Of a stretch of DNA of 64,000 bases, positions 18,035-39,300 are shown piece by piece (position 1 is the stretch's first letter; each line of letters begins with the position of its first letter). This DNA is from Convolutriloba macropyga. Taxonomy: Eukaryota. The notes under the pieces were generated by a model. That model worked only from the letters and a program-made list of their open reading frames with translations, was not told the DNA's origin and made no database searches. Where the stretch lies: contig NC_134474.1 of assembly GCF_964194025.1 (NCBI RefSeq), positions 41,850,001-41,914,000 on the forward strand. The letters run 5' to 3'. Position numbers and translations under genes: made by a program.

Positions 18035-20555
18035 ATTGAAATTTTATTACAATTAAGTTTAAAAACTTTAGTTCATTGACTGGTATCATAAAGCTATTTA
18101 TGCTGCTTTCATCAAAGTTTGAGATTTGTTTTCATTTAGATGTTTAAAGTTTGTGATCATTACAATTACACGTTTTTCAAGTTTTAATACAATAAACATA
18201 TATTTTACACACTGTGTTCAAATCAACGTCAAAAACGCTACAAGACGTAAATATATTGTTAGAGTATTTGTGGAGAAAATAAACTTTGCAAAATTTAAGC
18301 GTAAAAATTGAGAAATTTATGATCGCTAGTCGCCTCAAGGACTGTTCAAAAGTGCCGAAACCTTTGATCTGTTCGTGTTTCGGCGCCTATAAATTATTTA
18401 CGCTTTAGATCATGATTGTGTTTATAACCAAAGTGAAGTAGACAAAATTTGCTTGTTGACTTCATGTGAAACGCAAGAAACAATTGTTAAGTGACAATAT
18501 TTGCGTTTTTCTAAAATTTTGGAGCAAAACATAATTGTTGACAAGAGCTGAAGCGAGTGGCGTATTTTGATCAGGTCGCTTTGTGAAAAGAGTCCTTGAA
18601 TGCTGTGAACCAATGATGGAACTTATGCCTCGGTGATCAGAGGTTTGAACTTTTCAGCACTGAAAAAGTTTTTTCAGTCCCCTTCAATTTGCGGTTAGTT
18701 CAAACTAGCGCTCATCTTGAAGAAAAATGAGATACACTGGAAACTTTCCCATGTTAAAGCATCAGTGTTGAATATTACGAATTGTGGAATCTTTGTAGAA
18801 ATTCATAAATGTATCAATCTAGAATTTAATTTTGAGGCAAATGAAGCCACTTTCTAATTACACCTACTATTATAGGTGTATCTATATGCAATGATTCCTC
18901 GAAGAATGTGCAGGTTTAATTATTAAACTCCCTTTTGTAGGACATTAGCAAGACAAAACTCAATAACGTTTAAAGTAATGAAAGCTTACAACTTCACCTC
19001 GAAAAATCATCTGATTCCCCCAAATTTATCCGATTACACCGAAACAGAATTTAAATCGTTTTTCAAAAGGTTCGCCGAAGTTTTCTTAAAAGATAATTGG
19101 GTTGTTTACGACACATTTTGAGAAATGCACATATTGAGAGCTCCAATTCCAGCACTTTTTCTTTATAATCTTAGGGCCTCTTCATGAGAGCTTGAACAGC
19201 TCATCTGAAGTCCTCTTGTGATTTTCTTTACGTTCATCGGCTGTAAAATATCATGTTGATTTGTTAATAAATTCAAATTACCTAAATCATGAGCTAAATT
19301 TACCTGAAATATGCCCCTATTTTGGGGTACTCAAAGTTACCTGCAAGGTAACTTACCTGCAGTCTGAAAACTTCTTGCAGTCCTATGTACAATTTACCTG
19401 CACAACGCAAGCTCGAGGTAAATCTATAAACCAGCACATTTTACCTAAAGTTTTAGGAAATTTACTCTCACAGAAAGGTTCAATTGAAACTGAGGAATAT
19501 TACAACGTTTGCGAAATCTGCAGAGACTAAAGTTTAAACTGGATATGCACGCAGAATTGCTGTATATTTCTATCAATTGAATATAGCATTTTTTTTAAAC
19601 TTTTCTGGTTAGTCTGTTTACAGTAAGCAGCTTTTTTGATTTCATTTGTTTTCGAGCCTTTCATTTGATCAATGGGAGCTGCTTGCACCATTGTCGGCGT
19701 TGCTTACGTGATTTGTAGTTCCTAATGATGACAGATGTCCAAAAGCTCACTTAGATATCATGTTAAACAAGGGGATTTAGAACAAACGTTGAGGTAGTCA
19801 GTCAAACGAAACCCAAAAATATGCTGTAACCTGCCGGAGTAAATTTTATTACTTGGCGTAATTTAGTTCTAATTTTAACCTTCAACTCATTTCAAACTAA
19901 TTCATACTTCTTTGCAGATTATTTCACTTTTGTGTCCGTTTCATTTCCCGATCCGTGATATCTCTTGTTAAAGCTTTACTTTTCAAAACAGGCATTCAAA
20001 GTGAAAAGTGAAATTTGCGTTAATAAATCCAATATCATAATTGTAGTGGCCTATCCTCTCCGCAACTAGCAGTCAAAAAACTTTCCCCTCTAGGAATCGA
20101 TGTTGTCGGGACAAACCGACATCGGGTCCCCCTCTTAGTAAGGAACAGTAGTGTAAGATTCTGAACTTTATTAGGCAGCCTAGAACGGGAACTAGCGCCT
20201 AGATCTCACAATTCGAAAGGTTTTTATTTGGTGGTTCGTTCTTGTTATTTGTCCGTTTATTTGCTCTTCCGGCTCGATCAAAACAGTTAGTGCAACTATT
20301 CAATTAATAAACCAAATACGTAAGTAACTAACGGAATAATAGTAAATATAACAACAAACAATCAAACTATACAATGGTAATCCAACTATAGTACCAGTTT
20401 ACAGCACTAACTAGAATACACTTAAGAACTACTCAGAGTACTGACTGGTAATCCTTAAGCACAACAAACTCTACGTTTAACCAAATTCCCGCGGAACGAT
20501 ACGATTCTACACGCTTATCTACCCGCTATAAACGTCGGTAATCCCGCAAACTATC

Positions 20556-20912
20556 AGAGCGATCGCTCTATTACCTAACTAACCGTCTAGCGATTTTAAA
20601 CACGCTAGACCCCAATCCGAGCTCAATGCTCAACGGTACAGGCAACTCTGCCAACTATAACTAATCCGAGCCGCTTGCTCGATCGAATAACGCAAGTTCC
20701 AGAACCTCTCGCTCACTTGCAACAGCGATCGGTGATCAGTAACGTAACTAAACCGCAAAGACTACTCAGAGCTTCTCGCTCAATCAAATCAGGCAAAACT
20801 CGCTAAATAACTCTAATTCTGTAACAGCGACTATTCAGAGCTTCTCGCTCAATCGCTCCGGCAAAGTTAAACGCAACGACGCTTAATAACGATTAACCAG
20901 AGCCTCTCGCTC
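20556..20912 (-). repeat. Array of seven GAGC-N4/5-GCTC hairpin units in the LTR (copy at 33841-34197)
   Basis: Units at ~20557, 20619, 20668, 20702, 20769, 20838 and 20900, separated by largely non-repeated spacers. Confidence 0.75.
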
Positions 20913-21000
20913 AATAATACCGGCAAACTATGCCAAACAATCGATAATTAACTCGTTCACGATTTGCAACTTCTGCGCTGCGCTTATAGTGTAAGCCGAT

Positions 21001-36010: not shown

Positions 36011-36104
36011 ACTAAATTCTAAGGCACAAATATACAACACGATAACGATGATGATGCGATGATGATATGATGATGATAATAGTTTAAGTTTAGTCTATAC
36101 AGTT

Positions 36105-36353
36105 TTAGTTTTTACTTTCTTCCGCCCTCATTATCCTTAGCCATTCCTCTTCCGATTCATTTCCGCTATTTGATTCTTCTCCCCTCGCAGCAAACAACCT
36201 TCCCTGTGCTATCTGCTTCATACGGATCAGCACGCGTACTTCCATATCTAACAATTTCATCCTCCGCTTTAGTTCCCGGTCTGCTAACTTCCTTTCCCGA
36301 CTCGTCACTAACACCTTCATAATCTTAGCTCCTCTTCGAGCACCTTTTTTCAT
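36105..36353 (-). CDS. Second copy of the 82-aa basic LTR ORF
   Basis: Intact; two amino-acid differences from 22818-23066. Confidence 0.55.
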   Translation of the reverse strand: MKKGARRGAKIMKVLVTSRERKLADRELKRRMKLLDMEVRVLIRMKQIAQGRLFAARGEESNSGNESEEEWLRIMRAEESKN

Positions 36354-39300
36354 TTTAACGTTTCAATGGCAGTTTACTGGATAGCAATATTACAAATCAG
36401 ATTATGGTGGGTTTTGGTGTTAAGTAAACAACTCAGCAAATTTGCGTTATTGTTGGTTCATCAACAACTCCGTTGGCCTTCATGTTTATGGTCATCCTAA
36501 TACGGTTAGTTCAATTTTCCAAGTAGAGACTACAGTCTAAGATCCAACTGCCAGCCAAAGGTGACTATACTTGTACCGTAACCAGATGCAGTTCAAATGC
36601 CACTGTAACCTATCTAAAATGAAACAATTCAAGGAGCATCGGTCCACTTTGAACGAGAACGCAAAAAAGCTCAACAAACTCTACTGAAAAAACAATTGCA
36701 AAGGATAGTGGGAACCGGAATGCTATGCCAAGAGAAACAATGGCCGCACTAGGACCGGAAACCAGTGTCCTTAGCATCTGGATAGACGGAAGGACAATTT
36801 TTGCTAGCAAAACCCCATCTGCATTGTTAATAATATAACTACATCATAATTTGCCATCGCGTGGAAGAAGCACTTATCCGTCCTCGAATTATCAAATTCA
36901 AAGCCAGGTTTGTTCGAATTTTACTTAGTGTACTGAGCCGCGAATTGAGAAAAAGTTTGAAAATTTTTCTTGATCTTGCAACATATTGATCTTGCAACAG
37001 GATCTATGCAAATCCGAATACAGTAGTGCTTACAACAATATAATGGCAATCACTAAGTCGGGAAAATCAAAACCAGTGTGAGACAATATCGGAAACGTTA
37101 CAGTTACGCTCCTCGAGAACTTCGGAAGCGTGTAAAATTATACACAAATCACCCGCGATGCGAATCACATCGAGTTATCCACAGCAACTAGGGTTTGCAA
37201 ATTTAATCAACCCGAACCAAGGAAGTTCTTCAGCGAAACTGATTCCCACACAAGGACGAATGACAGCCAAATCTTCAGCAATAGCTGCCACATTCCTGTT
37301 GCATATTTTGGCACAGGAATGATTTCAGACGAAATAAAACCCCTCATTGGACAGAACTTTTTCAAGAAATTAGATCTATCCCTCACACAGTCGTCTCCAT
37401 CATCAGGTAATATAATCAATAAAATTTCAAAACGATTTTCAATTCAAAGTCGTGTTGGAAGCTAAATTTCGGCACAGAATTTGCTCACAGAGATTAAATT
37501 GAACTTTTACAAAATAGTTCGAATTGATATTTTGTTTCACAATGGTTGTAACGGCAAAAAAGTAAAAAAAAAAAAACAGATAGGAAAAAAATCTAATTTT
37601 AGATTCAAAAGTACTCATTAAAGCAGTTCACAAAATAGGTATCAAATGGCAAACATTGTTAGGCCTTTCGATTGAATTTCTCAAGATGTATTTTCATTCG
37701 CATGGCAAGATTGACTAAATTAACCAATCGATCTTAAATATGCATAAAACCAACTTAACTTGCATCCTGATAAAGGGAGCAGGTTCAAATTTAAGATAAT
37801 GAACGGGCAAATGGCTGGCACTCATCGTTTCAGAACTGGATTTCACGTTGTTACACGGACCAAAGATTTATAGTACTTTAAGATACCTATTGTTTCCTGG
37901 ATGGAATGATAATTTTAAATAAAGGTACAGAAAAAGAGGAGGTATTTGATTGCTTAGAAAACTGAAAATCATTAACCTGGGTGTTAATCTACCTATATTT
38001 TACTTTGCTAAAACTTAAAATGGCTGGCTATGATACAATATTTTAAGAATTAAAAATTTATCACTCGAAAATAAAACCTAGGCTATTCTGGCCATCGTAC
38101 CACAGAAAACTCTTCAAACTTTTTTGTCATTTCTCGGCTCCTTACACTAGGTGAGTGAATTTCAGCCAAACTTGGCTCAACTTTGTGATCTCCTTCGTCC
38201 GTTCATTAATATTAAAAGTTTATATGGAAAACACAGACTGGCAAACATGTTATAGAAATTACAAATCGTCACTAAAAATTTCCAATTTTTCCGGAAACTC
38301 GAAACTCACGGAAAGTGCGGCGCCTCTCGGTGAGGTTTTGTAGTGTCGTTAGAACAGTTAACAATTGATGGTTGGAAACCAGACGCTCTTGCCTAACTTT
38401 TTTGAGCCCTTGCAAGGAACGTTACAGTGTCAAAATATAAAGCTATTAGGTGTATTTTTCTCCATCGAATATTTCAAAAACGATTCAAATCGCCAACTAT
38501 TTGCAGCATCATTGATCATAGAGCACTATGAGTACTACTATCAATACACAAATATCACTTTTCAAATAGATCATATAACAGACGTCTCACTTGTTGGCTG
38601 GACCGACTTCTTCCTCACAGATTTTCAATTGATCACTGGCCAGGTGCAAAAATGGGTTCAACTGATTAAATTTCTTGCAACCCACATCAGCAAGCTAGAA
38701 AACTCATGATGAGGAAGTTTCGGTTGCAAATTGAAACCGAATCGTCCTAACCGCAAAACACGAAAAATTGATTGATCGCACTTGCGCAGCGCAATATCAT
38801 GCGTTTTACGGGGAACTTGCACAGCACGGTGAAAAAAAAACAAGTAGCGTTGAGTTGAATTCATACATTTGCATTGAAATTTCCACTGAGAAGTGCAAAA
38901 AAATTAGTTCGTTTTTTGCCACGCAAATACCCACTCACAATTATCGCTCCAACTTAATCAATTCCCAGAACTCAACTTTCGCCTCGTAAAAACAGGTAAA
39001 TAGCTTACTCGCAGGTCAAAATACAACTCAATTTAGCGTTCCGCCCTCAGTAATTAGAACTGTTAACTTCGTAAGTCACATTTCTAGAAATAACAGGTCA
39101 CGAATAAGTTCAATCCTTGTTGTCCAAATTCTAGCTAGAGAAGAGTTACTTCATTTGGCTCATGCACCACATTTACCAGGCACTTCATCTACAATTAGCA
39201 TCCGTTTTTTGTGCTTCAAACAAATGTTTACAAATTCTACACTTTCCTATTGCAATGACCTCCATGTAAGCTCCACCTTTGTGTTCGCCAAAAAGCAGCG

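Follow-up and report, generated by a model that had tools for sequence, protein, structure and literature searches.

Vertebrate complex retroviruses, exemplified by the foamy viruses, mouse mammary tumour virus (sag), human immunodeficiency virus (nef) and human T-cell leukaemia virus (HBZ), carry 3′ accessory genes, an open reading frame (ORF) in the U3 region and an antisense gene driven from the long terminal repeat (LTR). We analyzed a 64,000-nucleotide stretch of the genome of the acoel Convolutriloba macropyga (contig NC_134474.1, positions 41,850,001 to 41,914,000; hereafter the window), which contains an env-bearing Ty3/gypsy retrotransposon on its minus strand (20152..36521). This element resembles the complex retroviruses in layout, since conserved accessory ORFs lie 3′ of env, in U3 and in antisense orientation. 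Unlike theirs, its pol is recognized by RNase H and integrase C-terminal models of the Ty3/gypsy type and is not of the Retroviridae type, an assignment made from the pol domains, which include reverse transcriptase (RT), with identities taken within the genome. No homology was found between the acoel extra genes and the accessory genes of vertebrate retroviruses. The initial annotation of the window had proposed an undescribed lineage of complex invertebrate retrovirus; we did not find the architecture described in the literature searched, but the pol is of the Ty3/gypsy (Metaviridae) type and "complex retrovirus" holds as an analogy. Our preferred reading, which we consider rather probable, is that the window holds a decayed env-bearing Ty3/gypsy copy whose 3-kb LTR carries a conserved, likely spliced antisense zinc-finger-OTU gene, the product of which is likely a deubiquitinase directed against host ubiquitin control.

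Several described Ty3/gypsy elements, cited here from the accessible portions of the respective papers, share parts of this architecture. The ancient errantiviruses, env-carrying Ty3/gypsy elements with an F-type env (Chary and Hayashi, PMC13524379), have the same gag-pol-env order, Ty3/gypsy pol, tRNA primer and recent multi-copy expansion, and their env likewise combines a furin-type site, a hydrophobic fusion-peptide-like stretch and a transmembrane segment; the group is further marked by a "mini" domain in the RNase H-integrase bridge (PMC13524379). Their LTRs, however, measure 0.2-1.8 kb in the accessible part of the supplement 1 table (PMC13524379), as against 3.0-4.0 kb here, and the acoel element has four extra selected genes. 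The main text of that survey, as far as accessible, contains no OTU, accessory, antisense or acoel terms, and its seven supplements contain none of five acoel names (PMC13524379).

Antisense extra ORFs and long LTRs are also found in the plant gypsy elements Ogre, Grande, RIRE2 and Retand (PMC7264820, PMC6431247): Ogre LTRs span 1.9-6.5 kb (PMC6431247), and Grande gene23 is a conserved antisense extra ORF with its own promoter (PMC7264820). The plant ORFs sit between pol and the 3′ LTR, mostly have no known domains and are called of unknown origin in the accessible text, whereas the acoel gene lies inside U3 and has a predicted intron and a recognizable predicted enzyme fold. Among invertebrates, the Caenorhabditis elegans element Cer1 with its CERV gene (PMC10309623), bdelloid elements with their ORF3s (PMC5408684) and planarian Burro, which has an env and ubiquitination-linked domains (PMC6431247), are likewise LTR elements with extra regulatory or enzymatic genes; in the accessible portions their extras, unlike the acoel gene, are sense and internal, and none is OTU or LTR-encoded. 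Acoel genomes themselves are rich in LTR elements (PMC9911081). The claim that accessory ORFs are atypical of invertebrate gypsy elements yields to Cer1, the bdelloid elements and Burro, and multi-kilobase LTRs are known from Ogre. Long LTRs and accessory ORFs have precedents, and the LTR-borne OTU cargo is what appears to be new. Such a gene appears to be undescribed in any retrovirus-like element; none was found in the searched literature, with Repbase and most subscription journals outside the search.

Long terminal repeats and their antisense gene

In self-comparison the LTRs of the window copy form a direct repeat on the minus strand, the 3′ LTR at 20152..23234 (3083 bp, TG...CA) and the 5′ LTR at 33437..36521 (3085 bp), which differ by 22 mismatches and 2 gap columns. 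The target-site duplication (TSD) AGTAG flanks them at 20147..20151 and 36522..36526, and a polypurine tract (PPT; 23235..23246, minus strand) adjoins the 3′ LTR. The length of 3083 bp had initially been deduced from the TSD, the PPT, the inverted termini and the primer-binding site (PBS). All but the last agree with it: the PBS (33063..33080, minus strand), which matches the 3′ end of host tRNA-Asn(GTT), does not adjoin the 5′ LTR in this copy. The tRNA 3′ pattern has 16 genomic matches, and the three loci checked were all tRNA-Asn. Between PBS and LTR lies a 355-bp duplication (33082..33436), made up of a 285-bp copy of the opposite flank at 19867-20151 (275/285 identical) and the final 78 bp of the LTR repeated. 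Because the PBS directly adjoins the LTR in eight of nine two-LTR sister copies, this insert is private to the window copy, and an LTR of 3.44 kb was rejected. Its simplest likely cause is a post-insertion template switch between the LTRs.

A genome search with the U3 end gave at least 41 matches (40 candidates scored). Among 11 single-LTR loci, nine measure 2921-3085 bp and have perfect 5-bp TSDs, and another is the internal LTR of a tandem. An LTR length of about 3 kb is a family trait and, as noted at the outset, exceeds five- to six-fold that of the repeats of the Copia (607-bp) and BEL (533-bp) elements of the window, both of which are real. We also searched the genome with the second exon of the antisense gene described below, which yielded 150 scored matches of 513 and of 610 candidates, many of them paired at 12-14 kb. 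The pairs that we fetched were elements with gag, pol and env whose PBS was the same and whose LTRs measured 3.3-4.0 kb; in several, the two LTRs were 99-100% identical. The elements sampled comprise three autonomous lineages, A (that of the window), B/D and C/E/F/G; from one lineage to another, pol identity is 55-67%. In two places the repeats form tandem arrays: five lineage-B LTR genes lie about 11.9 kb apart at G000:C2:17259245-17307240 (G000 being the genome), and three partial lineage-A LTRs lie about 2 kb apart at C10:60586738-60591242.

The antisense gene reads on the plus strand of the window, within U3. Exon 1 (21772..22208; second copy 35059-35495) encodes an integrase N-terminal extension and an HHCC zinc finger (Pfam Integrase_H2C2, E 3.5e-5); splice motifs then delimit a predicted 70-nt GT-AG phase-2 intron (22209..22278; second copy 35496-35565); and exon 2 (22279..22723; second copy 35566-36010) encodes a predicted OTU-fold cysteine protease domain, with an AATAAA overlapping the stop codon. 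Together the exons comprise 882 nt, or 293 codons and the stop. The gene is present in both LTRs of all three autonomous lineages sampled, its second exon being 34-44% identical to that of lineage B, and it alone among the extra genes is common to the whole clade, the others varying by lineage. Just upstream, a stretch of about 50 bp (21678-21730) is shared with a very abundant repeat, seen as a depth spike with loose ends, and is possibly a remnant of a DNA-transposon end.

We assessed selection by the ratio of nonsynonymous to synonymous divergence (dN/dS), counted on variants shared by at least two of 8-21 copies, a count that ignores transition bias and tree structure. The ratio was 0.30 for the zinc-finger exon, 0.16 for the OTU exon and 0.22 for the lineage-B gene, compared with 0.78 and 1.13 in two LTR control stretches and 0.59-6.2 in shifted or reversed frames, and the five accessory frames had no shared stops. 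With values of 0.15-0.30 against these controls, four extra genes of lineage A are real and under purifying selection: two lie downstream of env and ahead of the PPT (ORF4 and ORF5), and two lie within U3 (ORF6 and the antisense gene). Both long LTRs and extra ORFs are thus traits of the family and not of one copy, the point on which the initial annotation had staked its proposal.

A predicted GT-AG (once GC-AG) phase-2 intron of 62-76 nt occurs at one position in 36 of 41 LTRs of lineages A, E, F and G and is visible in C too. Both ends are retained even as the length and sequence of the intron drift; in lineage B it is precisely absent, and a continuous 297-codon frame spans the same point. 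The antisense gene is thus likely spliced. Replication leaves in place an intron that is antisense to the genomic RNA, and its presence in the LTR would mean that the gene was captured as DNA, not as mRNA. No joint listed for the contigs of four runs of unrecorded type, which cover all 30 bins, matches the antisense intron. These patterns bear on the suggestion that the gene is a passive hitchhiker, a functionless fragment of a DNA transposon or host gene that landed in an ancestral LTR and has been copied along. Nested insertions are common, a satellite family (below) spreads without the gene, and the stretch at 21678-21730 is shared with an abundant repeat; yet dN/dS stays at 0.10-0.32 at synonymous distances up to saturation, without shared stops, and splice sites persist in a drifting intron, so that we regard a mere passenger as highly improbable.

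The antisense gene has a history of its own. Synonymous divergence (dS) between the E, F and C bodies is 0.09-0.14 in gag and env (E, F and G), whereas the antisense genes of these elements differ at dS from 1.9 to saturation, with dN/dS of 0.10-0.20. Within lineage A, two old alleles of exon 1 (dS 0.8-0.9) occur on exon 2 backgrounds that are only dS 0.07-0.19 apart. Recombination would therefore have carried old alleles from one near-identical body to another, the behaviour that a gene in conflict should show.

The antisense protein and its possible origin

The zinc-finger-OTU identity first assigned to the gene needs qualification: the gene is conserved and has two exons, and the OTU part is recognized by predicted fold. 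In the antisense protein Pfam finds the Integrase_H2C2 part alone, and the OTU domain was missed by Pfam, PDB sequence search and ESM Atlas. Among 1.84 billion representatives, a profile search found 74 matches to the protein, and a natural 297-residue lineage-B protein, folded with a 48-row alignment, reached a mean predicted local distance difference test score (pLDDT) of 92.8. The protein holds just two domains, with no DDE core and no GPY/F motif. Residues ~2-110 match the integrase N-terminal extension and zinc finger of foamy virus (Z 8.9), Ty3 (Z 7.6) and murine leukaemia virus (Z 6.4), and residues ~150-295 match OTU proteases (OTUD3, Z 11.1, root-mean-square deviation 3.5, 125 aligned; Foldseek E 1.7e-4). 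The top nine fold rows are all OTU, and nairovirus OTUs match at Z 9-10. Nairoviruses use OTU domains against host ubiquitin defence. The putative catalytic His is invariant in 16 of 16 aligned rows and the Cys is present in 15 of 16; in the model, the Cys opens a helix and the His lies on the last strand.

Several points weigh against this reading, beyond the simple counting behind dN/dS and the class assignment by pol domains. None of the 16 aligned domain rows is recognized by the Pfam OTU model, and solved OTUs share 5-17% identity. The fold comes from a lineage-B protein that is 41% identical to exon 2 of the window, not from the window's own. The residue at His+2 is Phe, Leu or Ser, where OTUs usually have Asp or Asn, and the Asp at Cys-3 is retained in lineage B only; for these two reasons the activity or specificity of the antisense OTU may be atypical. 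Splicing, promoter and polyadenylation of the gene, moreover, rest on motifs and conservation. It is therefore conceivable, though in our estimate unlikely, that the gene is real and selected while its OTU binds ubiquitin, acts as a scaffold or cleaves another substrate. The non-canonical third residue and catalytic loop and the missing Pfam match would suit such a role, as would a host relative that persists without Cys or His. Against it, both residues are kept, at the positions expected of an OTU active site, across lineages just 34-44% identical, and we favour a deubiquitinase.

This host relative, P0094, is a single-copy gene of two exons at G000:C13:16567360-16578691 (L073, L074, L076-L079) that matches RefSeq XP_075260017.1 of C. 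macropyga at 99-100%. It belongs to the same two-domain family and has lost the catalytic Cys and His; its 10.4-kb intron interrupts the same codon as in the LTR-borne gene. No gag, pol or env lies within 37 kb. In a 30-row tree (11 G000 rows and 19 of the 74 profile matches; midpoint root, no clade test), P0094 clusters, on a long branch, with C/E/F/G (support 99/98). It is likely, though not proven, that the host domesticated the gene from a solo LTR. Two distant relatives tested are close to nothing in G000, so the gene family exists elsewhere; a metagenome scan found no relative.

As to where the gene came from, Ginger1 transposases combine a YPYY extension, zinc finger, DDE core, GPY/F motif, OTU domain and GT-AG introns (PMC2836005). 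The antisense gene has a YPYY-type extension (by eye) and H2C2 at its start, an OTU domain at its end and a GT-AG intron. Because domain order and intron agree, the comparison suggests an origin from a Ginger1-like DNA transposon. Unlike Ginger1, the gene has neither DDE core nor GPY/F motif, is fixed in the LTR and moves by reverse transcription. Also counting against such an origin, no inverted repeat of at least 40 nt was found inside the LTR (Ginger1 terminal inverted repeats are 40-270 bp), and a weak test among 5249 candidates revealed no longer, DDE-bearing relative and no donor. The Pfam-positive OTUs of the genome, mostly in frames of about 2500 codons, have only faint similarity to the antisense OTU. 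Such long frames with a canonical OTU, possibly Helitron-like, lie at G000:C4:51247693, C2:35746210 and C10:43.2-43.6 Mb (L061-L067), several being clustered on C10.

The idea that the N-terminal module arose when the element's own integrase was duplicated was rejected, since the module has no significant profile match to five element pol proteins. Core-less integrase N-terminal fragments are natural dominant-negative candidates, and the gene might instead be a self-limiting factor: either the module would block or temper integration of the element itself, or the antisense RNA would damp its activity, so that copy number stays tolerable. That the host retained a catalytically dead single copy and that regulation by antisense RNA has been considered for plant elements (PMC7264820, accessible portion) would accord with this. 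Self-limitation nonetheless leaves the conserved protease active site unexplained, and the module does not duplicate the integrase N-terminus of the element; we hold self-limitation to be quite improbable.

Other genes of the element and its surroundings

The sense ORFs initially placed downstream of env were in part confirmed: ORF4, ORF5 and ORF6 are selected, but frames of 180 and 97 codons are broken pieces of env and were rejected as accessory genes. ORF4 (23863..24465, minus strand; dN/dS 0.17) encodes a predicted all-helical protein of about 200 residues with no known family, its start codon being lost in the window copy. It was not identified by Pfam, PDB sequence search or ESM Atlas, and its model is poor (pLDDT 59; best fold match at Z 5.6, which is background). 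ORF5 (23403..23690, minus strand; dN/dS 0.20) has 95 codons, with an internal stop in the window copy. The "~95-codon ORF" of the initial annotation is a real extra gene if ORF5 was meant, but a tail of env if it was the frame at 24847-25140. The 82-codon ORF is real and is ORF6 (22818..23066, second copy 36105-36353, minus strand; dN/dS 0.15), which encodes 82 residues, basic then acidic; it lies inside U3, hence in both LTRs. Frames of 102 and 105 codons at 21011-21363 were rejected as genes (dN/dS 0.78 for the 102-codon frame), as was an 81-codon LTR frame of lineage B.

ORF4, ORF5 and ORF6 are lineage-specific accessory proteins, and a weak similarity of ORF5 between lineages A and B (E 0.012) is the sole A-B link among them. 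Lineage B has sense ORFs of 185, 101 and 117 residues and a second antisense ORF of 129-136 residues just inside the 3′ LTR boundary (L021:4806-5195, plus strand; dN/dS 0.32, few variants), while in C/E/F/G a 148-residue ORF precedes the PPT and another ORF lies in U3; those extras tested are also constrained, some on few variants. The U3 sense ORF of lineages C, E and G (L029-L034, L041-L044, L049-L050) starts with MARTK(N/Q)T and was not seen in A or B. This start resembles the histone H3 N-terminal tail, and the ORF may encode a histone mimic.

A non-autonomous satellite family of about 8.6 kb (G000:C4:52562774-52571386, L113-L115, and similar copies on C8, C10 and C7) has 2.3-kb LTRs, a tRNA-Asn PBS, part of the lineage A U3 including the promoter segment, and the LTR end. 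It has no pol, env or OTU, and the antisense gene is a stub in four of four copies fetched; it contains an ORF of about 950 codons with Gag-like repeats (by eye) and no Pfam match. It keeps a homolog of ORF4 (29% identical), and because a satellite without pol and env retains it, the most likely role of ORF4 is in the expression of the element itself.

The gag, pol and env genes reported for the window copy are confirmed by their domains and by sister env frames, although stops or frameshifts split all three. A stop interrupts gag (31856..32974, minus strand), which encodes a CCHC knuckle. Pol (27417..31925, minus strand) has the Pfam domain order protease-RT-RNase H-integrase, with a Ty3-type RNase H and a GPY/F-type C-terminus, and is broken by stops and frameshifts. 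Env (24847..27174, minus strand) takes in frames of 457, 180 and 97 codons, the latter two mapping to the end of the sister env frame, and is a single frame of 768-771 residues in four of nine sister copies. Read by eye, an alignment of six natural env frames displays a hydrophobic (signal-like) N-terminus, an RSKR site, a hydrophobic fusion-peptide-like stretch, heptads, a transmembrane segment and a tail. No PDB match was found for env. Baculo_F matches four of the six (best E 0.00022, below threshold), neither family-A env being among them, which suggests an F-type identity. The dN/dS values are 0.02 for RT, 0.10 for gag, 0.08 for the env ectodomain and 0.77 for the env tail.

Elsewhere in the window lie a Copia element (6204-11666), a BEL/Pao element (44824-54983) and, 2 kb from the Ty3/gypsy element, a 791-codon frame with ankyrin repeats (15659-18034, plus strand). 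Degenerate tandem and segmental repeats with periods of about 540, 1400-1660, 695, 160 and 54 bp, unrelated to the element, occupy 57480-61830, 2763-4127 and 46426-47250.

A proposed mechanism and its implications

A candidate sense TATA box (21000..21006, minus strand) and the antisense gene are arranged head-to-head: the box lies on the opposite strand, about 770 bp upstream of the start codon of the gene, and the motif is also found in one sister copy and in the satellite family. A candidate sense polyadenylation signal lies at 20256..20261 (minus strand). We propose that U3 acts as a two-way promoter, yielding genomic RNA in one direction and a separate spliced, polyadenylated antisense mRNA in the other. 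The antisense mRNA could arise from any LTR, solo LTRs included, and the intron would survive in the LTR, being antisense to the genomic RNA. The N-terminal module would bring the enzyme to the DNA of the element, to chromatin or to the integration complex; there the OTU domain would remove ubiquitin, or a ubiquitin-like tag, that otherwise marks element proteins for destruction or chromatin for silencing. We favour this mechanism because selection, the predicted fold and the active-site residues support it.

In its ancestry, a Ginger1-like DNA transposon may have inserted backwards into an ancestral U3 and then lost its DDE core, and recombination would since have swapped U3 modules between element bodies. 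Put together, the LTR would be a mobile anti-host cassette: a Ginger-derived, spliced antisense deubiquitinase with integrase-type targeting, expressed from every LTR, with old alleles swapped, a satellite exploiting it in trans and a dead decoy captured by the host. This full scenario we offer tentatively, as possible but somewhat short of an even chance.

The element would thus carry a recognizable, if predicted, enzyme where the extra ORFs of retrotransposons are usually of unknown function and origin. It makes testable an old guess, raised in the accessible portion of PMC2836005, that transposon-borne OTU and Ulp1 proteases manipulate host ubiquitin pathways. Placement in antisense inside U3 offers a retroelement a route to retain an intron-containing gene, and solo LTRs offer a route to seed host genes, with an apparent example on G000:C13. 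The element also extends env-bearing gypsy elements to Xenacoelomorpha, which the accessible portions of the errantivirus survey do not mention (PMC13524379), and indicates that a complex-retrovirus layout has arisen independently in Ty3/gypsy. If our reading is true, the antisense gene would be the first known case of a deubiquitinase in an LTR retroelement or retrovirus.

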